Below, piece after piece: positions 3,046-53,608 of a stretch of 64,000 nt of DNA; positions within the stretch are counted from its first letter, which is position 1; each line of letters starts with the position of its first letter. This stretch comes from Candidatus Omnitrophota bacterium (GTDB lineage: Bacteria; Omnitrophota; Gorgyraeia; JAGLLT01): assembly GCA_030632085.1 (NCBI GenBank), contig DAOVJY010000003.1, positions 23,809 to 87,808 of the forward strand, in the 5' to 3' direction. The notes beneath the pieces were generated by a model. That model did no database searches. It was not told the DNA's origin and saw only the letters and a program-made list of their open reading frames with translations. The translations under genes and the position numbers were made by a program.

Positions 3046-3813
3046 ATGAATTTAATTAAAATTTTTATAGTAATATTCGGGATTTTATCAATCATAGGGA
3101 TTATTGTAGCTATATTGTGGGCTATCAAATCCCCACCATTAATATCAAAATTAAATTTATCTTCAACCCAAATGAATATATTTATCAATATTATTATCAT
3201 TTTTGTCATGGTCTTAACAATACTAATAATCATAACTTATTCTAATCAGCAAATTATTGAAAACCAAAAATCAACAAAAGAATATATTGAAGCCTTAAAA
3301 ACAACCACGCAAGAACGAATATCTGAAGCTAAGAAAATTACAGACTCGCAGCTTCTCAAGATGGATGAGCAAATTAAAACAATCCAAAATGAAACAAATC
3401 GCCAGATACGGATAGAAGAAAAATGGACGAATATTAAAAGGAAGCAATTGATAGAATCTTTAATTGAAGAAATCAAACAAAACCAAAGCATTTATAGTAG
3501 GCTCGAAAAAGATTTGGAAGAAGATCCTGTCAAATCTAACTTCCAAAATTTTATTACTGTTAGTTTAGAAAAATGTTTGTCTGATTCCCCCATTGATAAT
3601 GAAGAAATAAACCACCATATATTAGGTTTGTATTATTGGATAAAAGTACATGACAACAAGTTGACTGCCTCTAGAACGCCCAGCATAACATCTGAATCAC
3701 TAAAAGGTATTCTTGGGGCAGTTGTAAAAAATTATAAAGGAAATGAAAAAAGCTATACTGGCTTAGTAAATTTATTAAGCGAATATATAAAAACAATAGA
3801 AATAAAAGAATAA
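3046..3813 (+). CDS. membrane-anchored coiled-coil hypothetical protein
   Basis: Two N-terminal TM helices are followed by a long charged, heptad-like region (EYIEALKTTTQERISEAKK...). Confidence 0.5.
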   Translation: MNLIKIFIVIFGILSIIGIIVAILWAIKSPPLISKLNLSSTQMNIFINIIIIFVMVLTILIIITYSNQQIIENQKSTKEYIEALKTTTQERISEAKKITDSQLLKMDEQIKTIQNETNRQIRIEEKWTNIKRKQLIESLIEEIKQNQSIYSRLEKDLEEDPVKSNFQNFITVSLEKCLSDSPIDNEEINHHILGLYYWIKVHDNKLTASRTPSITSESLKGILGAVVKNYKGNEKSYTGLVNLLSEYIKTIEIKE

Positions 3814-4601: not shown

Positions 4602-5459
4602 ATGGCCTATTTAATGCATATTGGTTTTGATAATACTTCTCGGCTTTGTAGAAATGTATACTACTTTGAATATAAAGGAATTCGGTATAAATTAATTCAA
4701 AATAACATAAGAAAATGGTGCGATGTTCTTTTGACGATAATACATGAAAGCAATAACAAGGTAGATCAAAATAAAATATATATGAATGCATCGGAATTTT
4801 TAAGTGCATTGGGTTGGGAAAATGAATCAAGGGTAAAATTGAGACATTTAGGTGGACCAGGAATACCTGATAATTATAAACTTAAAAATGCAAAATGTAG
4901 GTCATTTAGCTTTCCCGAAGTACCATTTGTAGGATATATAATAGGATATAATATCTGTGTGATTCCAAAAATTGAGACAGAAGAGCAAAGAAATGCTCTT
5001 ATGCTTTTTCGAGAAGCTTTTAGCTCTAATAATAACTATCTAGCATTCTTATTTTATTGGCAAGTGTTGGAAGTGGCGAAGGGTGACGCAATTGGATGGG
5101 TAAATAAAACACTCAAGAAAAATAGAAATAAAATTAGATTATTAAATGATGAAATAGAAAGAGTGCCATTAAATGGTAAAAAACTCGGGAATTATTTATA
5201 TGAAGATTGTCGTAATGCAATTGCACATATAAAACGTAAAAAATATGGACAAACTAAAATAAAACTTGACACCCTAGATGATAATAGCAGAATTGCAATA
5301 AGCACTCTGGTAATTAGAGAATTTGCAAGATATTATATTAAAAGTAGACTAGGCCTTCAAAAGAATATGTATTTAGTGCGAAAAAATGGGAAAGGGTTTC
5401 CATTTTATGCAAATGAAGAATATACAAAACACAATAGATGCAAGATAGCATATAAATGA
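4602..5459 (+). CDS. HEPN-motif protein (putative Abi/RNase-like), hypothetical
   Basis: The C-terminal region carries Rx4H (YEDCRNAIAHIK), which fits R-N-x-x-x-H of HEPN RNases. The family assignment rests on this motif only. Confidence 0.45.
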   Translation: MAYLMHIGFDNTSRLCRNVYYFEYKGIRYKLIQNNIRKWCDVLLTIIHESNNKVDQNKIYMNASEFLSALGWENESRVKLRHLGGPGIPDNYKLKNAKCRSFSFPEVPFVGYIIGYNICVIPKIETEEQRNALMLFREAFSSNNNYLAFLFYWQVLEVAKGDAIGWVNKTLKKNRNKIRLLNDEIERVPLNGKKLGNYLYEDCRNAIAHIKRKKYGQTKIKLDTLDDNSRIAISTLVIREFARYYIKSRLGLQKNMYLVRKNGKGFPFYANEEYTKHNRCKIAYK

Positions 5460-10721: not shown

Positions 10722-12382
10722 ACAGAGTTTTACTAACAAAATTAAAAATAAAAAATTTAGGACCCATTAAAGAAGATGAAATTTCTTTTAATAATTTTAC
10801 ATTCTTTGTTGGAAGAAATAATGCTGGGAAGTCACATTATCTGAAAGCAATTGAATTATTACTTTCTACAGGAATAAAAAAAGAACAAATTTCTAAATTG
10901 CAACACGACAAGAATCAGCCGATTGTTATTGAAGGGGATTTTAAAGGTGTTAGTGATTTTACCGATTTGGTAACAGTAAGTAATCACAGACAAGCAATTG
11001 AGAGCGCAATAAAAGATGGGATGTTCAAAATTGTTTCTGTGTTAGATTCTGAATCAGGCGCACAGCTGGGTATTTATAAAGAGGATGGTTCTTTGCATAA
11101 TCCGGGTGGGTTCTCTGGTAATCTATTGAAAGTTTTACCGGATATCATATCAATCCCCGCGACAGCAGATACTGTACAAGAGCTAGCTGATAAATCAACT
11201 ACCGCTTTAGGAAAACTAAAAAAAGAAGTAATGAGTTCCTTTTTTCAAGAGCTAGCAAGCAAAACAAAAACTGCTTTATCAGACTTAGATGATTTTTTGC
11301 ACAGTCAAGATGAGGGGGTTCGTTCTAAAGCGATAGCTAAATTTGAAATAGGATTAAAAGAAGAATTCACGGGAGAATTTAGTGATATTGTACCTTCAGT
11401 TGAGTTTGGTTTGCCAGATGAGGCTGTAATTGCAAAGGGAATGAAAATTTTACTTGATGATGGATATAAAACAGAGGTCGAGCAAAAAGGACATGGTTTA
11501 CAAAGAGCAACATTATTAGCTCTTTTGAAATTATTAGCAAAAAGTGGGAAAAAATACCAAGACCGCCCTGCCCCCATATTTTTAATTGGAGAGTTAGAAT
11601 CTTTTCTTCACCCCTATGCTCAGCGCGAGATGGCAAATGCTTTAATTAAGATGATGGAACGGTATCAGATAGTAACAACTACACATTCACCATTTATCGT
11701 TACTCCAGCAACTATTGAAGGTTACCGCAGAGTTAGAAAAACCAAGGAGAATGGCGCCAAAAATATCGCCCTAGATCCTTCAAATGTTGATGTGAGTTTA
11801 ATCAAACGACATCTTGAGCGCCGTGGAAATCTTGAGGGGTTGTTTGCCGATAGGGTTATTTTGATCGAGGGCAGCCACGATGAAAATTTCTACGAGCGTC
11901 TAAAAACAATTTTTAATATTTCTTCTCCACAGGGAAAATTTACACTTTTCATCAAGGCCGACGGCAAGAAACAATTAAGACTTGCTAGAAAGTTTTATCA
12001 ACAGATGAGTTTTGATGATATTGCTGTAATATGCGATTTAGATTATCTCTTTAGTCGCGATGTAGAGTATCTACTCGAGAAGTTGGGATTAGAAAAAGAG
12101 TTGCCTAATAAATTTCGTGAACATATTGACTGGCAAAACGATAGAGAGTCAAAGTTAGAGTATATTGTGGAAAAATTAAGTGAGAAAGGAGAGCCTAATG
12201 GATTTGGTGACCTAATCCAAGGTTTACAGGACAAAAGAATTTTTGTCTTACGTCACGGTGCACCAGAAATGTATTACAAAAATAACAAAGGAGAGAAGAA
12301 TGGCTGGGTTCATCTCAATTCACAAAATGATTTGTTAGAGGTGGAGTATTTAAAGAAATTGATAAAATTAGTTTTAATGTAA
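10718..12382 (+). CDS. OLD-family ATP-dependent nuclease (ABC-type ATPase + C-terminal Toprim)
   Basis: Walker A GRNNAGKSH. ABC signature/Walker B region IFLIGELESFLHP. Toprim glutamate ILIEGSHDE and DxD (VICDLDY). Overlaps the upstream MTase by 4 nt. Confidence 0.75.
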   Translation: MNRVLLTKLKIKNLGPIKEDEISFNNFTFFVGRNNAGKSHYLKAIELLLSTGIKKEQISKLQHDKNQPIVIEGDFKGVSDFTDLVTVSNHRQAIESAIKDGMFKIVSVLDSESGAQLGIYKEDGSLHNPGGFSGNLLKVLPDIISIPATADTVQELADKSTTALGKLKKEVMSSFFQELASKTKTALSDLDDFLHSQDEGVRSKAIAKFEIGLKEEFTGEFSDIVPSVEFGLPDEAVIAKGMKILLDDGYKTEVEQKGHGLQRATLLALLKLLAKSGKKYQDRPAPIFLIGELESFLHPYAQREMANALIKMMERYQIVTTTHSPFIVTPATIEGYRRVRKTKENGAKNIALDPSNVDVSLIKRHLERRGNLEGLFADRVILIEGSHDENFYERLKTIFNISSPQGKFTLFIKADGKKQLRLARKFYQQMSFDDIAVICDLDYLFSRDVEYLLEKLGLEKELPNKFREHIDWQNDRESKLEYIVEKLSEKGEPNGFGDLIQGLQDKRIFVLRHGAPEMYYKNNKGEKNGWVHLNSQNDLLEVEYLKKLIKLVLM

Positions 12383-13247: not shown

Positions 13248-14344
13248 GAAGAAAACTCCCAGGTGTCAGAGAAATAATTAAGGGGGATAAATACGAAGTC
13301 AACTATGTAGTTGCTGGCAGGAGATATCAGTATCGCATTAATGCCGCATCTCTTACTGAAGCACACAACAAGAAATTAGAAGATATGGCAGATAAGCGTA
13401 AAAATATATCTACGCTATTAGATAATGGAGAACGTCTTAATACCGGATTTTCTGACGCCTGGGAGAGATTATACGCTGATTTAATTGCGGATAACCTACC
13501 CAGAAAGACAATACAGCATTACGCCAAGACTTATAGTAGGATGTTTAATGAGTTTATAAATTTAAGATTTCCGGATTTGATGAATTTCGGTCAGCTGAGC
13601 TTACCGTTCTTCCGGGAATATAAAAATTACTATGTTAATAATCTCAATAGACCTAGGGGCTGGAGAGCAGAGTTGATATTTGTCAAAGCGATAATAAAGC
13701 GCCTCTACGCCTTGGGTTATTGCAGCAAAGAGCTCATAGACAGCTTAAAGGAGATAAAGAAACCCCGGGCTGTCAAAAAGGAACACCCCCATATACCTAA
13801 TAGCAAAATAAAGGAATTGTTTCAATATATAAAAAATAGCAGGCCAGATTATTACTATCCTTTGTATTTTATTAGTAGGACAGGCAGAAGAATTAATGAG
13901 ACAACGCTTATAGAGCGGAGAGATGTAGAATGGAAAGGGTTTAGCCCTGCAAGGCTTAATATAAGAGCCGAGACTACAAAAACGAAACAAAATGCTCCTC
14001 TTGCAAATCTTGACCAAGAATTAAAGCAGGTTATAAGCGAAGCATATAAGGCAGGTTTAAAATGCAAGGAGCCTTATTTATTTCTTAATATGTTTAACAG
14101 AAGATGCACGCCCAGCAAGGTAAGGGAATGTCTTAAAGGAGCAAGTAAGCAGATTTTGGGAGTGGAAATTACTCCTCACTATTTCAGGCATAGGTTTTTA
14201 ACAGAATGCGGCAAAGCCAATGTACCTATCGTGGATGTTATGGCTATTTCTGGCATTAAGGATATAAATGTTATAGTTAATTATTATAGTCACAGTACAG
14301 TAGAAGGACAGACAAAAGTGCTTGAAGTTAGCAGGGTTTGGTGA
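13244..14344 (+). CDS. int: tyrosine recombinase / phage-type integrase
   Basis: The C-terminal catalytic region reads HYFRHRFLTE...VNYYSH (R, H-x-x-R and Y). It sits next to the attR repeat. Confidence 0.8.
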   Translation: MRRKLPGVREIIKGDKYEVNYVVAGRRYQYRINAASLTEAHNKKLEDMADKRKNISTLLDNGERLNTGFSDAWERLYADLIADNLPRKTIQHYAKTYSRMFNEFINLRFPDLMNFGQLSLPFFREYKNYYVNNLNRPRGWRAELIFVKAIIKRLYALGYCSKELIDSLKEIKKPRAVKKEHPHIPNSKIKELFQYIKNSRPDYYYPLYFISRTGRRINETTLIERRDVEWKGFSPARLNIRAETTKTKQNAPLANLDQELKQVISEAYKAGLKCKEPYLFLNMFNRRCTPSKVRECLKGASKQILGVEITPHYFRHRFLTECGKANVPIVDVMAISGIKDINVIVNYYSHSTVEGQTKVLEVSRVW

Positions 14345-39675: not shown

Positions 39676-39754
39676 AAAATTCCTCGGCCACGCTCGTCAT
39701 CGCAAGTATGAAGCTTGCTCAGGCGTTGCGGGCGAGTGGCGTGTACTTGAAAAC

Positions 39755-39830
39755 ATGTTTTATACTTATGTACTTAAAAGTGACAAAGATAATAAATTAT
39801 ATATAGGATTTACTACTGATATAATTAAAT
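39755..39830 (+). pseudogene. GIY-YIG nuclease N-terminal fragment (about 25 codons), truncated at the tRNA-Asn junction
   Basis: MFYTYVLKSDKDNKLYIGFTTDI matches the GIY-YIG (UPF0213) N-terminus; compare the intact paralog at 61745. The reading frame runs into the tRNA. Confidence 0.45.
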
Positions 39831-39906
39831 TCCTCGGTGGCTCAGTTGGTAGAGCGGGTGACTGTTAATCACTAGGTCGTAGGTTCGAGTCCTACCCGGG
39901 GAGCCA
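39831..39906 (+). tRNA. tRNA-Asn (anticodon GUU)
   Basis: Acceptor TCCTCGG/CCGGGGA, D-arm GCTCAGTTGGTAGAGC, anticodon loop CTGTTAA, T-arm GTAGGTTCGAGTCCTAC, then GCCA. Confidence 0.8.
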
Positions 39907-40317
39907 ACATACCCCAATGTTGATAACACAACATTGTTTATGATAGAACAACCTGAAAAAGGAGGTGATGTGTAATGAATAAGATAATATCTTGGATATT
40001 ATCTAAGATTACACCGCAACTCCAGCCTCCTCGATTTAAAACCCGGCCAAGTAAATAAAACTCTATTTACCGTCGGATACTTTTAAATAAGGAATTCTTA
40101 GGGTTGTTTTGAAGGATGTTTTGCTTTGGAAGAGTTAATGCTCTAAGCCGAAGTTCTGTTTTATTATTGAATTTCATAGAGGATAAAAGGCACAATAAAG
40201 TGGAGGTAGCAGATACCTTTAATGGAGCTTTCGTTGAAGCCTGCTACTAAAACATCCCAAGTTTAAATGTAAGCAACTTCATGCCATAACGCAAAACGGA
40301 GACATAACTCTTATTTC

Positions 40318-41239: not shown

Positions 41240-42787
41240 TTAAGCGTCTTGAAGATCTAAAAAAGGAAACTTAACTCCAGGCGTATAATACACAATTTCA
41301 ATTTCTTCTTCTTTTATTATAATCTTCTCAATAAACTTCTTCAAAAACTCTCGTTTTTCTTGAATATTATTGCCTATAAAAGTTACTTCCATTTCTTTTC
41401 TAAAATTATCTATCATTGTTCTTGAGATGTGTATTGGCCGATGCCGGCTATTTAAATTCTCATAATACGCTATTTCTTCTTGAAGAGAATCTTTTTGACT
41501 TTTTAATTCTTTTAACCTCGGAGCAACAAGGGCTACATCAATAATCCCACTTTCAATAGCTTCATACTGTCTCATAACACGATTATGCAAATCGCTAGCT
41601 TTTTTCTTAAGGTCTGTTATTTTCATCCAATAGTCAGTTCTTAAAGATTTAGCAGCTTGGTTTATATCATCAACCAAATTTTTCATATTCTCATCTGAAA
41701 AAAGAAGATCTTTTACTCTTTCAATTATTTCGTTATCAAGTTCATCCGCACGCACTCTATAACCGGAACAAACATCTTTACCCTTTTTAGAATAAGTTAT
41801 ACAGTTGTAATAGGCATATTTTTTATCTCTGCCATAGCCGGTCACGCCATAAGTAGCATTACATTTACCGCATCTCATTAGACCGGATAGAAGATAAGAG
41901 CTTGAAGTCACTCTTGCTGGTTGATTTTTAGGTTGCCTTTTTTCAATAAGTCTTTGTACTTTGTTGAATAAATCTTCGCTTATAATAGCCTCGTGAGTAT
42001 TTTTAATAATAATCCACTGGTCTTTTGGCTTAAATTGCTTGCCGTAAGTTTTTTTATCCCTTTTATTAAATACTGTCCAGCCGATGTGCGATTCATTCCT
42101 CAATACATTTGCCACAGTGGATTTGCTCCAATTGCCGCCTGATCGTGGTTTATGATCATGGGTATTAAGATAAGTAACAATATTCTTAAGTCCATTGCCT
42201 TTGACGTATAATTCAAAGATAAGTTTAACTATTGCTGCTTCAGATTCATTGATTTCGTATTTTGTTCTTTGATTTTTATTTTCATCATAAATATGCACAT
42301 TTTTATAGCCGAAAGCTGCATATCCGCCATTTCGGTAGCCTTTCCTGGTATTTTCAATTAATCCTCTCAAAGTCTCTTGCCCTAAGACAGCGCTGTAAAA
42401 TTCATCAATAACCTCAATCATTCCTTCCATTAATTGTCCTTGAGGTGTATTATCTATTGGCTCTGATATTGAAATAACTTCGACTCCGCGCTTTTTTAAC
42501 ATAGCTTTATAGATGATGCTATCTTGCCTATTTCTTGCAAATCTGGATAATTTCCAAACTAAAATAGCTTGAAACGTTGGAAACTTTTTCTTAGTTTCTG
42601 CTATCATTTTTAAAAAAGCCGGCCTGTCAGTTGATAGAGCGCTTTCAGCTTCATCTATATATTCTTTATAGACTGCCATGTTATGCTTTAAGGCATATTC
42701 ATGAAGAAGTCTTAGTTGAGATGGTATGCTATTATTCTTATCAGCTTGTTGGTTACTTGATACGCGAGCATATAAAGCTACTTTCAT
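41240..42787 (-). CDS. large serine recombinase (resolvase/invertase N-domain + recombinase domain + zinc ribbon)
   Basis: N-terminus MKVALYARVSSNQQ carries the catalytic Ser. The protein is 515 aa, with a CGKCNATYG...YYNC zinc ribbon. Confidence 0.8.
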   Translation of the reverse strand: MKVALYARVSSNQQADKNNSIPSQLRLLHEYALKHNMAVYKEYIDEAESALSTDRPAFLKMIAETKKKFPTFQAILVWKLSRFARNRQDSIIYKAMLKKRGVEVISISEPIDNTPQGQLMEGMIEVIDEFYSAVLGQETLRGLIENTRKGYRNGGYAAFGYKNVHIYDENKNQRTKYEINESEAAIVKLIFELYVKGNGLKNIVTYLNTHDHKPRSGGNWSKSTVANVLRNESHIGWTVFNKRDKKTYGKQFKPKDQWIIIKNTHEAIISEDLFNKVQRLIEKRQPKNQPARVTSSSYLLSGLMRCGKCNATYGVTGYGRDKKYAYYNCITYSKKGKDVCSGYRVRADELDNEIIERVKDLLFSDENMKNLVDDINQAAKSLRTDYWMKITDLKKKASDLHNRVMRQYEAIESGIIDVALVAPRLKELKSQKDSLQEEIAYYENLNSRHRPIHISRTMIDNFRKEMEVTFIGNNIQEKREFLKKFIEKIIIKEEEIEIVYYTPGVKFPFLDLQDA

Positions 42788-45485: not shown

Positions 45486-45697
45486 CTTTTTGCTACTGAT
45501 TGTTACAATGTGCCTACCCGAGCAAAATTTTTTTCGGTAACAACTTATCTCCAAACAGTAATGCTTAATTATTCCCTGAGTGGGTATTTAAACAAGTGTT
45601 AAATTAGCTTCTTCAAATAGCACTTTTATAATACTTAAATCAATTTCAAGGCTAATATCCCTGTTGCGAAACAAGTCATATATGGGGAGCCAAAATC

Positions 45698-49492: not shown

Positions 49493-49846
49493 TTGAAGGG
49501 GGAGGATTTGATGAAAAAAATTAAAACAAAGATGAAAAAGCAAATTACCAAAGCGATAGGAAAGCAGTTTAAAAAGGTTATTGCGAAGAACGTAGATGCT
49601 GCTGACCCAAGCGCTTTAAATGGCGCTGCAAAACTGGCAGAGGAAATAGCTTTAAAGACTTTTGGTATAAAGGCAACTGCAAATGCAAAATCTAAAATGA
49701 CTACATCAAAAACAAAGAGCAAAGAATTTAAAATAAAGATTAAGGGTATGGAAAAAGCAGCATGGGATGCTTTAAAGGGAGCAGAAATAGATAAAGCCCT
49801 TAAGGAGCGATTAAAAGTAGAGGTACGCTTTACTTACAGATTTTAA
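49493..49846 (+). CDS. lysine-rich low-complexity hypothetical protein
   Basis: ORF of 117 aa with a GGGGGA RBS and a composition of K/A/T repeats. Confidence 0.35.
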   Translation: MKGEDLMKKIKTKMKKQITKAIGKQFKKVIAKNVDAADPSALNGAAKLAEEIALKTFGIKATANAKSKMTTSKTKSKEFKIKIKGMEKAAWDALKGAEIDKALKERLKVEVRFTYRF

Positions 49847-50030
49847 CTAAGTGATTACAAAGCGTAAGGCATGAAAAAAGTTCGTTATCTTTTAACTGTA
49901 CATCAAACCAAGCAGATACAGTAAAAAATAACCTCTTTTCTATAATTCTAGGAGGAGCACAATATTTAAAAAAGTCCTAAAAGTTTAATGGGATGTTTTT
50001 GCCTTTTTTGTTATCAACATCGTCTAGTCC

Positions 50031-50179
50031 GGGGAGCCAAAATTTAAAAGGCCGCATGAAAGTGTGGCCTTTTAAATTATTAACCTCTGGAAACTTGACG
50101 AGAACCTACGACTTGAAGAATGGTTCTGACCGAGCAGAGCGAGGAAATGCCGAACAAGTTATTTAAATTCGGCGCCTAC
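50031..50179 (+). repeat. copy 1 of a roughly 150-nt structured direct repeat, beginning with the tRNA-Asn 3' core
   Basis: Aligns with 51178-51330. Three stems are conserved, with compensatory changes in the first (GGCCGCA/TGTGGCC versus GGCCGTG/CGCGGCC). Confidence 0.6.
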
Positions 50180-50498
50180 CCGGAGAGCAAACATTTGTAA
50201 CTTATTTATTTTAAATAAGGTACAATAAGCATACCTTTCTATTTTTAGATGGGCTTTTTCTTTGGTTTGCTGTAAAATTTAAAGATTTATAAGTAATTAA
50301 GTTAATGGTATTGAATTTAGTGATTAGTGTGGTATAATTGGTATAGATGGAATGAGGAAATGTACTAGACAAAAAGTTCTTGACAGATTGAATGTTATAA
50401 GGTAATATTACTTATCATCCCAGCGAAGTCTCGTATTTCGTTGGCCCCGAATTCCTTAATGGATTCGGGTTTTTTTATATATAAAATGGAGAGAAAAT

Positions 50499-51110
50499 GT
50501 GAATAGAGTTGCTGTTTTTGTTGACGGGTTTAATCTTTATCACGCCTTGGACTGTGATTTAGTATACCATAAATATAAATGGTTAGACCTTGAAAAGTTT
50601 TCAAAATGCTTTACTTTACCTGGAGATACCCTTGGTGATGTTTTATATTTTACTGCATATATAACTTGGAACTCTCAAAAATTAGCTAAGCATCAAATTT
50701 ATATCAAAGCTCTGCAATTAGTTGGTGTCACTCCTGTCTTTGGAGCCTTTAGAATGAAAGATACTGTTTGTCGAATATGCCATAGAGCATATAAAAAACC
50801 TGAAGAAAAACAAACAGATGTTAATATTGCGATAAAGCTTTTTGAAACTGCAATATCTGATACTTGGGATACTGCTTTGATTGTATCTGGAGATAGCGAC
50901 CTTATCCCGGCTATACAAGCTGTTAAAAGAACCTTTCCAATCAAAAGAATAGGCATTGTCATACCAATTGGGAGAAGAGCGGAAGAATTGAAAAAAGTTG
51001 CAGATTTTCATAGTAAGGTAAAGCAAAAACATTTAAAAACCTGTCAATTTAATGATGTTATAACGCTTAATAATAATCATACCTTAAAGCGTCCTGATTC
51101 TTGGAAGTAG
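50499..51110 (+). CDS. NYN-domain (LabA/DUF88-like PIN-fold) nuclease
   Basis: N-terminus MNRVAVFVDGFNLYHAL with the conserved D, plus SGDSDL. A cysteine-containing insert CRICHRAY is present. Confidence 0.65.
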   Translation: MNRVAVFVDGFNLYHALDCDLVYHKYKWLDLEKFSKCFTLPGDTLGDVLYFTAYITWNSQKLAKHQIYIKALQLVGVTPVFGAFRMKDTVCRICHRAYKKPEEKQTDVNIAIKLFETAISDTWDTALIVSGDSDLIPAIQAVKRTFPIKRIGIVIPIGRRAEELKKVADFHSKVKQKHLKTCQFNDVITLNNNHTLKRPDSWK

Positions 51111-51177
51111 TTTAAATGAAAAAGGGCAGTTGTATTTCATAGTTAGTATGCAGAAAGTTGCGAATCTCGTTCAATGC

Positions 51178-51330
51178 GGGGAGCCAAAATTTAAAAGGCC
51201 GTGTGAAAGCGCGGCCTTTTAAATTATTAACCTCTGGAAGATTGACGAGAACCTTGTGCCGTAAGGCACAGGTTGAGCGACCGACCGCAGCGAGGAAATG
51301 CCGAACAAGTTATTTGAAGTCGGCGCCTAC
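51178..51330 (+). repeat. copy 2 of the roughly 150-nt structured direct repeat
   Basis: See copy 1. The ORF-track 51158-51382 spans it and is probably spurious. Confidence 0.6.
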
Positions 51331-51649
51331 AAACTTAGCATTATATAGCTTGTTTAAGCGTTTATTTACTTACTCACGTTGATTTCTAAGCATGCTTAGA
51401 CGTTTCTCTTGCAGTCCTCAGCATTCTTATTGCTTTCCTTTTAACTCTTGCCATAGCCGGTAAGGCGGTATCAGGGGTAGGCTTAAAATAGTGACAAATT
51501 AGTAGAAATAGTGTACAATACATGCTCGTTACATAGTAATTAATAAAATGAAGATGTTTAAAGACCGCTAGGTTTAGAAGCATTTGCCTAAGTGGTTTTT
51601 ATTTTTTAACACAATTAAACAAATAAACACAAAAGTAGGTTATTAGATT

Positions 51650-53266
51650 ATGATTTCAGCTAATGGTGTATCGTTGCGTTATGGAAAACGCACTCTTTTT
51701 TTAGATGTAAATATAACTTTTTCTCCCGGGAATTGTTACGGGTTGATTGGTGCCAATGGTTCCGGCAAATCAACATTCTTAAAAATACTCTCCGGGGAAG
51801 TTGATTCTACAAAAGGTGATATTGCAGTTTCTCCAGATAAACGGATCTCTGTTTTAGAACAGGATCAGTTTGCTTTTGACGAATATACCGTATTAAACAC
51901 AGTTATTAGGGGACATAAGAAGCTATATGATATTATGATAGAAAGAGATGATATCTGTGCTAATGAAAATTTTTCCGATGAAGATGGAATTCGTCTTGCG
52001 GATCTTGAAGGTGAGTTTGCTGACTTAGATGGGTGGAACGCCGAACCAAACGCGGCTAAATTATTAAGTGATCTAGGAATTCCGGAAGAATTTCATGATT
52101 TGCAGATGAAGCAGCTTGAAGGAGGACGAAAGGTGCGCGTGCTTTTAGCGCAAGCACTATTCGGTAATCCAGACATCTTGTTGCTTGATGAACCTACTAA
52201 TCATCTGGATGTTGAAACGTGCATGTGGCTTGAAGGGTTCTTGTATAATTTTGAAAATATAGCTATTGTTGTTTCGCATGACCGTCATTTTTTAAATAAA
52301 GTTTGTACTCATATCGCGGATATTGATTATGGTAAAATTCAGTTGTATCCGGGAAATTTCAGATTCTGGTTACAATCAAGTCAGCTTGCATTAAAACAAC
52401 GTAACGATTATAATAAAAAGACACTTGAAAAAAGAAAGGAACTTCAGGTATTTATAGCTCGCTTTAGTGCTAATGCGTCTAAATCTAAACAGGCAACTAG
52501 TCGTAAAAGAGCTCTGGAGAAACTTACTCTTGAAGATATAAAACCATCCTCTAGAAAATCTCCCTATATTAATTTTAAGGTTGAAAAGGACGCTGGTAAT
52601 AACCTCTTAAGTATAAAGGGACTCTCAAAATCAGTAGATGGTGTAACTATGTTTAAGGACCTCTCTATAAAGATTGAAAGAAATGATAAGATTGCTTTTG
52701 TTGGATCACAGAACCTTATCAAGTCAACGCTCTTTCGTGTTTTAATGGGTGAGACTCCTGCTGATGAAGGTACTTTTAAATGGGGGGCTGCTACTTCAAG
52801 AGCATATTTTCCTAAGGATAATGCTAAATACTTTGATCTTGACCTTAATATTGTTGAGTGGCTTAGGCAATATATAAGAGCTACTGATGATGCTTCTGTA
52901 CGTGGATTTTTAGGACGTATGTTATTTTCCGGGGAAGAATCTTTAAAGTCAGTTAGGGTATTATCCGGAGGGGAAAAGGTCAGGTGTATTCTAGCGCGTA
53001 TGATGCTGGTGCAGGGCAATGTATTGATCTTGGATGAACCAACCAACCATTTGGACTTAGAATCAATAGCATCTCTAAATAAAGCCCTAGAGGAATTTCC
53101 AGGAACAATTCTATTCTCTTCTCATGACCATCAGCTTGTGCAAACTGTTGCCAATCGTATTATTGAAATTACCCCCCATGGTTTTGTGGATAGGGTAATG
53201 ACAACATATGATGAATATTTGTCTGATAAATCGGTTAAAAAGCAGCTTCAGAAACTCTACCCTTAG
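51650..53266 (+). CDS. ABC-F family ATPase (tandem ABC domains, no TMD; translation-factor-like)
   Basis: Two Walker A motifs (GANGSGKST; second domain GSQNLIKST), two LSGGE signatures and an inter-domain linker. Confidence 0.75.
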   Translation: MISANGVSLRYGKRTLFLDVNITFSPGNCYGLIGANGSGKSTFLKILSGEVDSTKGDIAVSPDKRISVLEQDQFAFDEYTVLNTVIRGHKKLYDIMIERDDICANENFSDEDGIRLADLEGEFADLDGWNAEPNAAKLLSDLGIPEEFHDLQMKQLEGGRKVRVLLAQALFGNPDILLLDEPTNHLDVETCMWLEGFLYNFENIAIVVSHDRHFLNKVCTHIADIDYGKIQLYPGNFRFWLQSSQLALKQRNDYNKKTLEKRKELQVFIARFSANASKSKQATSRKRALEKLTLEDIKPSSRKSPYINFKVEKDAGNNLLSIKGLSKSVDGVTMFKDLSIKIERNDKIAFVGSQNLIKSTLFRVLMGETPADEGTFKWGAATSRAYFPKDNAKYFDLDLNIVEWLRQYIRATDDASVRGFLGRMLFSGEESLKSVRVLSGGEKVRCILARMMLVQGNVLILDEPTNHLDLESIASLNKALEEFPGTILFSSHDHQLVQTVANRIIEITPHGFVDRVMTTYDEYLSDKSVKKQLQKLYP

Positions 53267-53608
53267 CCTCATTCCGCCCTTTAAAATGAAAAATTGTGAA
53301 TCTTGTCTATAATGAAAAAATGGGTTACACCTATTTTTAAATTATTAAACTCTGAAAGAAGGAACTTTTATGCTAAAAGTGTCGATAATATTTTACACTA
53401 TCAGCTTGACTTTTTTGTGTGTAAAAAAATCAAACAAATGCTTAATGCATAATTTAGTTGACAAATAGAGAAAAATAGTAGATGCTATATACAGTAGTAA
53501 ATGAGGGAATTGAAGTTTTAGTCTGCAAAAGAACAAAAGTTTCGTGTTGCGATTTTTTATTTCTGCCGTTATTTACTAAAATTTTGGAAGAAGGAGGTAC
53601 AGTAAGTA

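Follow-up and report, generated by a model that had tools for sequence, protein, structure and literature searches.

Probable junction modules of a tandem element array behind tRNA-Asn: a 150-nt repeat flanking an NYN nuclease gene in an Omnitrophota genome

The 64,000-nucleotide stretch considered here (the window) is taken from the contig DAOVJY010000003.1 of a Candidatus Omnitrophota bacterium, and it contains a gene for an NYN/LabA-like nuclease that is flanked by two copies of a direct repeat of ~ 150 nt each, at 50030–50179 and 51177–51330. The two copies are probably reiterated boundary modules of an array of site-specific elements, stacked in tandem behind a tRNA-Asn(GTT) gene, and neither an RNA gene nor a plain duplication. 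In other words, the feature most likely belongs to a known type of genomic-island architecture and is not a new RNA gene. Read from the tRNA onwards, the array consists of the tRNA-Asn gene, a 10.1-kb island with a large serine recombinase (LSR), an X-type half-site with its core, copy 1, a decayed tRNA end, a ~ 1-kb NYN cassette without an integrase, a Y-type half-site with its core, copy 2, a decayed left end, a gene for an ABC-F protein and, finally, a degenerate Y-site.

The repeat pair and its attachment sites

The features from which the array is assembled are as follows.

39831–39906, plus strand: intact tRNA-Asn(GTT) gene (ARAGORN; Rfam tRNA, 69.8 bits; 100% identical to the tRNA of the relative L094)
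39907–39927, plus strand: left end (P' arm) of the 10.1-kb island, ACATACCCCAATGTTGATAAC (sequence and pattern search)
41240–42787, minus strand: LSR gene, 515 aa (Pfam Resolvase 2.3e-30, Recombinase 1.9e-29, Zn_ribbon_recom 1e-14)
45663–45692, plus strand: extra Y-type half-site and core inside the island, GTTGCGAAACAAGTCATATATGGGGAGCCA, then a terminator hairpin (pattern search)
50010–50039, plus strand: X-type half-site (P arm) and core, the attR of the 10.1-kb island, GTTATCAACATCGTCTAGTCC GGGGAGCCA (sequence and pattern search)
50030–50179, plus strand: repeat copy 1, with core 50030–50039, stem 1 50041–50078, linker ATTAACCTCTGGAA, stem 2 ~ 50097–50127 and stem 3 50149–50173
50174–50194, plus strand: decayed tRNA-Asn 3' end closing copy 1, GCCTACCCGGAGAGCAAACAT against TCCTACCCGGGGAGCCAACAT in the tRNA (3 mismatches in 21)
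50191–50268, plus strand: standard cassette left end, an inverted repeat TTGTAACTTATTTA...TAAATAAGGTACAA with a decayed hairpin and T-run (alignment with eight loci)
50499–51110, plus strand: NYN/LabA-like nuclease gene, 203 aa (Pfam NYN 9.5e-17; PADLOC HEC-09 2e-60; 1924 homologues)
51112–51186, minus strand: right end of the NYN cassette, including the Y-type half-site 51157–51186 and a decayed peptide tail WLPALNEIRNFLHTNYEIQLPFFI with its stop (pattern search and translation)
51177–51330, plus strand: repeat copy 2, with core 51177–51186, terminator hairpin 51188–51225, linker, stem 2 with a perfect GUAA hairpin, and stem 3; it ends in CCTAC

A repeat search of the window resolves the pair into two parts, D1 (50020–50107 and 51167–51254; 88 nt, 89% identity) and D2 (50128–50179 and 51279–51330; 52 nt, 90% identity), which are separated by a middle of 20–25 nt that is unrelated between the copies; over the 147 columns of a gapped alignment the mean column identity is 90%. 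Outside the two copies, the window has no further occurrence of a pair of conserved blocks (26 and 28 nt), and none is expected from shuffled sequences. Each copy opens with CGGGGAGCCA, which is the last 10 nt of the tRNA gene and which has exactly three occurrences in the 64 kb (the tRNA end and the two copy starts), against 0.04 expected. A weaker similarity begins ~ 10 nt earlier (50020/51167), and a weak continuation is seen past the CCTAC. The left neighbours of the copies are different, being an X-type half-site before copy 1 and a Y-type half-site before copy 2, and the right neighbours differ too.

A preliminary description of this DNA had reported the direct repeat of ~ 150 nt around the NYN gene and the tRNA-Asn core at the start of each copy, and had argued that the pair was not a simple duplication. 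The repeat and its cores are confirmed, with the qualification that the 20-nt middle is replaced, and the dissimilar neighbours on either side bear out the last point. Its suggestion that the copies might be attachment (att) arms is supported as well, inasmuch as each copy begins at a core preceded by a recombinase half-site, and copy 1 ends in a second, decayed core. Related sites elsewhere in the window, at 45663–45692, 50174–50194 and 53285–53360, were absent from that description.

The last 10–11 nt of the tRNA (CCGGGGAGCCA, 39896–39906) form the recombination core that is common to all of the junctions. The 10.1 kb that separate copy 1 from the tRNA are occupied by genes of foreign appearance, among them the recombinase and a PDC-S64 defence candidate (PADLOC); the scan for recombinase domains covered the ten largest open reading frames (ORFs) of the window, and the serine recombinase was the only recombinase found there. 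The outer 11 nt of ACATACCCCAATGTTGATAAC (39917) and of the X-site (50010) are exact reverse complements of each other and are symmetrically placed. The X-type attP reconstructed from the two ends, GTTATCAACAT-cgtctagtcc-GGGGAGCCA-acatacccca-ATGTTGATAAC, is 51 bp in length and symmetric about the core, and would thus have the form expected of an LSR attP. The same X-type site closes other islands in L089 and L006 (related loci are referred to by L numbers throughout). Since a Y-site lies at 45663 within an island that is bounded by X-type arms, the island is either a composite or carries a fossil junction. No contig containing a circular junction was found.

The site in close relatives

Two loci carry close relatives of the ABC-F gene, L094 with 93% identity to that of the window (94% at the DNA level) and L089, a sister strain, with 97% (98% DNA). 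The order of features in L094 is RecR, a 72-aa ORF, a tRNA-Asn identical to that of the window and a terminator hairpin unlike that of the window; the sequence equivalent to ~ 51450 onwards, leading to ABC-F, adjoins this hairpin, and there is no island, no NYN gene and neither stem 2 nor stem 3 of the repeat. In L089, the same tRNA end is followed by a different island of 9.6 kb (HD, SocA_Panacea, FRG, PLD), an X-type site, a third terminator variant, a stem 2 of the copy-2 type and the ABC-F gene, with no NYN gene and no stem 3. On this comparison of gene order, L094 is to be read as the empty site and L089 as an alternative occupant of the same site.

It follows from the absence of stems 2 and 3 in L094, and of stem 3 in L089, that the 150-nt unit is dispensable and not part of a conserved backbone. 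Stem 1, on the other hand, stands in the tRNA-terminator position in all of the versions compared (window, L094 and L089).

Cassette ends and Y-type sites

The decayed tRNA end that closes copy 1 (50174–50194) is a match for which chance would be expected to provide no examples. The wider stretch 50174–50280 aligns with the true tRNA-Asn attL junctions of L146 and L089, and, from this alignment, 50174–50194 is identified as the fossil attL core of the NYN cassette. The adjoining segment 50191–50268 aligns with the sequence right after the intact tRNA-Asn in L146 and L089 and also with the sequence after Y-cores in L114, L119, L105, L130, L010 and L006. L146 may serve as the model for such a cassette, where the tRNA-Asn, the left end, a toxin–antitoxin pair, a Y-site with its core and a terminator follow one another within 1.15 kb and without an integrase. 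Given the fossil attL on the left and the Y-type attR on the right, the NYN cassette proper extends over 50191–51186. Equally, because copy 1 ends in a decayed tRNA end and a cassette left end, each 150-nt copy can be regarded as a cargo-less unit between two tRNA-Asn cores. Decay of a second tRNA-Asn gene was also weighed as the origin of the entire unit and set aside: ARAGORN finds nothing, and support is confined to the last ~ 26 nt of copy 1 (by eye, 19 agree with the tRNA 3' end; of the 21 that were scored, 18 do) and to a possible acceptor-like pairing, CUCUGG/CCGGAG.

The NYN protein matches the HEC-09 profile over its full length (residues 1–203 on profile positions 1–203 of 203), from which the gene is assigned as the PADLOC candidate defence gene HEC-09, a putative single-gene defence. 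An exact look-up of the NYN and ABC-F proteins returned the source scaffold only; homologues of the ABC-F protein point to Candidatus Omnitrophota as the host group.

The Y-type half-site before copy 2, AGTTGCGAATCTCGTTCAATGC, differs from the X-type half-site and aligns with it position for position. Pattern searches place Y-type sites also at 45663 and in L006, L010 and L089, and a degenerate form of the pattern retrieves 51 stretches from Joint Genome Institute (JGI) metagenomes, nearly all of them followed by a hairpin terminator. Several of the metagenome contigs carry two to four Y-sites and, where the contigs are long enough (L122, L146), a tRNA-Asn lies upstream of the Y-site on the same strand. 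The site in L118 (935–985), GTTGCGAA-ACTCGTCCACTAC-GGGGAGCCA-TCATGGACGGCCA-TTCGCAAC, is 51 bp long and symmetric, with N13 spacers and the same geometry as the X-type site; it is apparently an intact Y-type attP, in a locus that is known from 2 kb of a 42-kb contig. The layout of the window recurs with other cargo in L112, in which the Y-site, core, terminator and related sequence occur twice, 1.2 kb apart. In L142 (1017–1112), an X-type left arm (GCATACCCCAATGTTGATAAC) stands directly after a Y-type site with its core, so that the tRNA is not the only place for an X-type element, which can also follow a Y-core. Among the metagenome loci with Y-sites, L142 is also the only one in which an NYN homologue occurs.

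When translated from the core along the minus strand, the Y-sites and their flanks (L097–L147) encode a conserved peptide of 27–34 aa ending in a stop, either WLPVLDEFRNWLYTEEAKKLYKELVIA or ...NFLASGEGAIVAEQIKQFNISLE. This tail is conserved and coding-like in 50 or more metagenome sites: its variation by codon position has entropies of 1.43, 1.19 and 1.69, and the residues before the core are not conserved. Judged by this pattern, the tail may be the C-terminal end of a gene that lies across attP and would be divided by integration, its end reading ...WLPVLDEFRNWL...; no full-length gene for the tail was found. A minus-strand coding reading of the repeat copies themselves was ruled out by stops and by the absence of conservation before the core.

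How the array may have grown

If the copies are junction modules, then the 10-nt core of each would be the place of recombination with the tRNA 3' end, and the intrinsic terminator that comes after it would replace the tRNA's own terminator and insulate the next cassette. The remaining ~ 100 nt, which contain stems 2 and 3, would be a non-coding element end, leading in copy 1 into a displaced and decayed tRNA-Asn T-arm and acceptor end. The elements could have entered at the tRNA successively, or as a composite of the unit and the NYN cassette, with older ones being pushed downstream and the serine-recombinase island presumably arriving last. Small deletions would later have trimmed the junctions differently in each strain, and the cassettes that lack an integrase may be mobilised in trans, much as are the cis-mobilizable elements (CIMEs). 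Of what is looked for in tandem tRNA islands, the analysis found the target gene with its repeats, a recombinase, a symmetric attP and an empty or alternatively occupied site in relatives.

Several points weigh against this reading. The products of LSR integration, attL and attR, are not substrates for the enzyme, such that repeated LSR integration at one site is unexpected. The single recombinase found therefore does not account for the growth of the array. A tblastn search of all the retrieved loci, with the LSR and eight further island proteins as queries, gave no recombinase for the Y-type sites, and the left end of the NYN cassette is not the symmetric partner of its Y-type arm, so that the two do not make a canonical LSR attP. 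Moreover, differences of 11 to 120 nt in the boundaries of the ABC-F segment separate the three strains, and these have to be put down to illegitimate deletions. The presence of the same cargo-less unit twice, in forms that have diverged by 10%, is explained by inference. Lastly, the junction-module model has no need of the good folding of stems 2 and 3, nor of the hairpin of different sequence in distant loci that may correspond to stem 3.

A much broader proposal, which must be considered unlikely, is that the Y-sites belong to an integron-like cassette system, based on a serine recombinase and acting at tRNA-Asn, that is widespread in Omnitrophota and neighbouring phyla. Stacking and shuffling in trans would then act on integrase-less defence or toxin–antitoxin cassettes of ~ 1 kb (NYN/HEC-09, toxin–antitoxin pairs, Abi) with standard ends; the 150-nt unit would count as a cassette lacking cargo, and its decayed tRNA-like end as a spare landing pad (pseudo-attB). 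Were this so, the standard ends would be an inverted repeat with a terminator on the left and a half-site reading as a protein tail on the right, and the pseudo-attB would regenerate an integration site that LSR recombination otherwise destroys.

NYN genes elsewhere and a possible insertion origin of the repeat

Single NYN genes are found in many genomes (L009–L088) between locus-specific direct repeats of 20–150 nt, which include tRNA 3' ends with their flanks and the 5' end of a metF-like gene. In L028, the repeats (379–468 and 1501–1590) are 90 nt in length, 100% identical and made up of a tRNA-Tyr 3' end with its flank; in L032, at a tRNA-Asp, they are 141 nt and 86% identical (2607–2740 and 4767–4902); and in L017 they are 35 nt, at a gene start (2495–2529 and 3299–3333). 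Flanking repeats of 129, 139 and 26 nt occur in L048, L047 and L030, respectively. The NYN gene often lies 200–350 nt downstream of a tRNA gene, for Asn, Gln, Tyr or Ser. From this distribution, the NYN (HEC-09) gene appears to behave as a mobile single-gene cassette.

Both the flanking repeats and the preference for sites downstream of tRNA genes would suit an explanation in which the insertion of the NYN cassette itself made the repeat, either as a long target-site duplication or through a Campbell-type crossover of a circle with the downstream flank of the tRNA-Asn gene. Within the window, however, the copies are 10% different and have a block of 20 nt replaced, and their left neighbours are arms of different type, X and Y. 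In addition, a decayed tRNA end and a standard left end lie between copy 1 and the cassette, which accordingly has a junction of its own, and the stem 2 of copy 2 is shared with L089, a strain without the NYN gene. An insertion origin is in this regard improbable.

Hairpins, the probable terminator and the question of an RNA

The plus strand of both copies folds into three hairpins (z = −5.7 for each copy). Stem 1 is a 17-bp hairpin, 1 nt past the CCA, which has a GC-rich top and GGCC-TTTTAAATT and is flanked by an A-tract and a T-tract. Four substitutions distinguish the two versions of this stem, all in its top and all transitions, and pairing is kept throughout (G.U to G-C, C-G to U.G and A-U to G-C), amounting to one true double compensation, A-U to G-C, and two one-sided changes. 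In stem 2 the base, GAGAACC...GGTT, is retained and the interior replaced; the interior of copy 2 extends the helix by 8 bp without a mismatch and is closed by a GUAA loop. The two versions of stem 3 are near-identical and therefore uninformative on covariation. These foldings agree with the preliminary description as to the three shared stem-loops, the preserved pairing of stem 1, the constant base and unrelated interior of stem 2 and the conservation of stem 3. As evidence of covariation, two sequences alone are only modest.

A terminator-like appearance had also been ascribed to stem 1, and the comparison supports it. The hairpin follows the CCA after 1 nt, the empty site of L094 has its own, different hairpin and T-run at this very position, and L089 has a terminator variant there; across the variants of copy 1, copy 2 and L089 pairing is kept in all three. 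Stem 1 was not called by a consensus terminator scan because its A and T tracts are absorbed into the 17-bp stem. On the grounds of position and pairing, stem 1 is probably the terminator of the tRNA, and its covariation is real but is to be expected of a terminator hairpin under selection; the compensatory changes would then reflect selection for termination.

Searches for a known RNA used Rfam 15, at the gathering threshold on the window and six related loci and at E ≤ 10 on 49800–51700. At the gathering threshold, the window gives tRNA matches only, with tRNA-Asn at 69.8 bits; at E ≤ 10, the best matches within 49800–51700 are far below threshold and unrelated, and none that is relevant occurs in the six related loci. 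A covariance model was also built from copies 1 and 2, as had been proposed, and was searched against the related loci. It does find further matches, in L089 (46.6 bits), L124 (37.2), L094 (23.1), L125 (22.3) and L120 (17.6), all of them directly after att cores. In the resulting alignment of ten rows, which is fitted to the model and in which three rows are reverse-strand readings of hairpins already covered, 10 of the 17 pairs of helix 1 are changed on both sides, but helices 2–5 have only 3–7 sequences behind them. Solid covariation is thus confined to helix 1, the probable terminator. The expectation of further, covarying homologues consequently stands for helix 1 and for positions after att cores, while the other helices are represented by too few sequences. 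The claim of a conserved RNA structure over all three stems is not supported, there being no Rfam match and stems 2 and 3 being missing from L094 and stem 3 from L089. Stems 2 and 3 are treated here as element-end sequence.

A conserved non-coding element of ~ 190 nt is found after the core and terminator in L120 (188–347, minus strand), L135 (378–575), L097 (4762–4954, minus strand), L112 (2448–2817) and L147 (709–907). In this element, for which there is no Rfam match, a 7-bp helix (GGAUUCC/GGAAUCC) encloses an inner hairpin; its 3' part occurs also by itself after gene ends and, in L147, continues into a decayed tRNA-Asn 3' half with core. The stem 2–3 part of the repeat resembles this element as it occurs in L120, L135, L097, L108 and L112, which have a variable hairpin at the place of stem 2 and a differently sequenced hairpin at that of stem 3. 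With a hidden Markov model of the L120-type element, copies 1 and 2 are the top two matches in the window, with an E-value of only ~ 0.2 (nhmmer), and homology of the copies to the element is no more than likely. RNAalifold shows almost no covariation among four full-length L120-type sequences. The exact stem 3 block had no match in viral contigs, nor did the combined pattern of stems 2 and 3 in JGI metagenomes, nor 49900–51650 in phage records (blastn).

The alternative that bears on these observations is that the 150-nt unit is a free-standing gene for a structured non-coding RNA, present in two copies and read from either strand, the minus-strand transcript ending at the bidirectional terminator. 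Both strands do fold far better than shuffled sequences (z from −4.3 to −5.7), stem 2 has the appearance of a hairpin of variable length at a fixed insertion point (L120 is empty there and L112 has ~ 100 nt), the GCCGAAC/GTTCGGC of stem 3 may match GCGGTAC/GTACCGC in L120 and L135, and copy 2, on the minus strand, is preceded by a TATAAT at a distance of 9 nt from its start. That TATAAT is missing at copy 1, however, and there is no promoter inside the repeat and no Rfam family at any threshold. The homology to the L120 type is weak (nhmmer E ~ 0.2; covariance model 17.6 bits), covariation beyond the terminator rests on 3–4 sequences, and a unit without stems 2 and 3 in the 93% relative, and without stem 3 in the 97% relative, is dispensable. 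An RNA gene must on balance be thought less probable still than an insertion origin.

An integron-type origin, with the units as attC sites and the NYN gene as an integron cassette, would suit the earlier mention of a structured recombination site. On one Bacteroidetes chromosome (OY970334.1, 3.70–3.82 Mb; L044, L045 and L046), three NYN genes lie in arrays of 151–155-nt repeats that start with GCCTAAC and end with GTTAGG, like the R''/R' cores of integron attC sites. One L044 repeat, treated as single-stranded DNA, folds modestly (z = −2.55). For the units of the window, the attC reading was rejected as highly implausible despite these attC-like ends, for there is no RYYYAAC/GTTRRRY core pair at the unit ends, the three hairpins are separate with no single long imperfect hairpin joining the ends, the unit starts with a tRNA 3' end, the only nearby recombinase among the ten ORFs scanned is a serine recombinase, and even the L044 repeat folds only modestly.

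Relation to known systems

The closest parallel is with the ssrA islands of Dehalococcoides, which lie in tandem, are bounded by 20-bp repeats of the ssrA 3' end and carry a 540-aa serine recombinase, and of which the integrase-less members have been read as cis-mobilizable (McMurdie et al. 2011, PMC3146451). As in those islands, the array in the window lies downstream of one small-RNA gene in tandem and is bounded by repeats of the 3' end of that gene, the motif upstream of each repeat is conserved without matching the target gene, a reverse-strand serine recombinase (~ 540 aa in Dehalococcoides) lies near attL, and some islands lack an integrase. The differences are that the target here is tRNA-Asn and not transfer-messenger RNA, that the host is an Omnitrophota bacterium, that a distance of 1.3 kb, with a defence-candidate gene in it, separates the recombinase from attL, that there are many single-gene cassettes of ~ 1 kb, and that the repeat runs for 150 nt beyond the core.

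In the tycheposons and tRNA-linked arrays of Prochlorococcus, successive integrations at one tRNA push older elements inward, and the islands contain scattered partial tRNAs and degenerate remnants, a minority of the elements having LSRs (bioRxiv 10.1101/2020.12.28.424599). Tycheposons mostly have tyrosine recombinases and replication modules, neither of which is seen in the 1-kb cassettes of the window.

Accretion of integrative and conjugative elements (ICEs) and CIMEs is known from ICESt1 and ICESt3 of Streptococcus (work also cited in PMC3146451), in which att-flanked segments without an integrase lie in tandem with an autonomous element and form co-mobilisable composites. The array in the window likewise has integrase-less, att-flanked segments in tandem. 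Unlike the window, the CIME/ICESt system uses a tyrosine integrase and the fda 3' end. In the staphylococcal cassette chromosome (SCCmec), the 3' end of rlmH is the integration site of CcrB-type LSRs, and direct repeats bound tandem composites that include recombinase-less pseudo-SCC elements. SCCmec differs in its protein-gene target, its repeats of 15–18 bp and the lack of a tRNA.

What emerges is that apparent covariation between nearby repeats can stem from a tRNA terminator at the edges of elements, without there being a new RNA gene, and the window provides a worked example in which a relative with the empty site settles such a case. It also points to an integration hot spot in the little-studied Omnitrophota, at which defence-type single-gene cassettes pile up behind tRNA-Asn. 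The att sites, conserved as they are across many metagenomes, could supply new pairs of serine integrases and att sites, and the widespread NYN (HEC-09) gene, with its strongly covarying leader RNA, merits experiments.

The NYN leader, the ABC-F segment and the tRNA upstream region

Four further features complete the annotation of this part of the window.

50311–50478, plus strand: two promoter-like sites (50311–50338 and 50380–50408) and a two-hairpin leader RNA ending in an intrinsic terminator (~ 50417–50478), from promoter and terminator scans
51331–51436, plus strand: decayed left end of the ABC-F segment, TTATATAGCTTGTTTAAG..., with the palindrome TCTAAGCATGCTTAGA (alignment)
51491–53266, plus strand: ABC-F gene (51650–53266; two Pfam ABC_tran domains and ABC_tran_Xtn) with promoter 51491–51519 (promoter scan), leader peptide MKMFKDR and stop (51548–51571) and attenuator hairpin
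53285–53360, plus strand: degenerate third copy after ABC-F, comprising a Y-site, terminator tail and linker (...ATTGTGAATCTTGTCTATAATG...TTTTTAAATTATTAAACTCTGAAAGA; repeat family D3)

The leader of the NYN gene (50380–50498) consists of the promoter, 'AUCAUCCC', hairpin 1, 'GGCCCCG', hairpin 2 with a U-run, and then the ribosome-binding site. Of its 15 base pairs, 13 show compensatory double changes across 38 loci in many phyla (for example L009:3905–3985 and L013:2970–3050), and the leader has no Rfam match. By analogy, this layout may recall type III toxin–antitoxin loci, or else an attenuator.

The segment 51331–51436 aligns more weakly with the standard left-end module and is absent from L094 and L089. 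The stretch 51491–51611, before the ABC-F start, contains a promoter-like site, a 7-codon ORF and a hairpin with a T-run. These elements, conserved also in both L094 and L089, are arranged as in antibiotic-resistance ABC-F genes that are subject to ribosome-mediated attenuation. The ABC-F gene is bracketed by junction modules, the downstream one being at 53285–53360 in the window, while in L089 the Y-sites at 11751–11781 and 13487–13517 flank a 375-aa ORF right after the gene. The genes downstream of ABC-F are different in the window and in L089.

Upstream of the tRNA, ~ 140 nt (39688–39826) between the 72-aa ORF and tRNA-Asn are absent from L094. A fragment of this stretch, ...YTYVLKSDKDNKLYIGFTTD, resembles the N-terminus of a small GIY-YIG nuclease, and GIY-YIG-like reading frames occur near cores of the tRNA-Asn type in L097, L125 and L137, where they come after the core.

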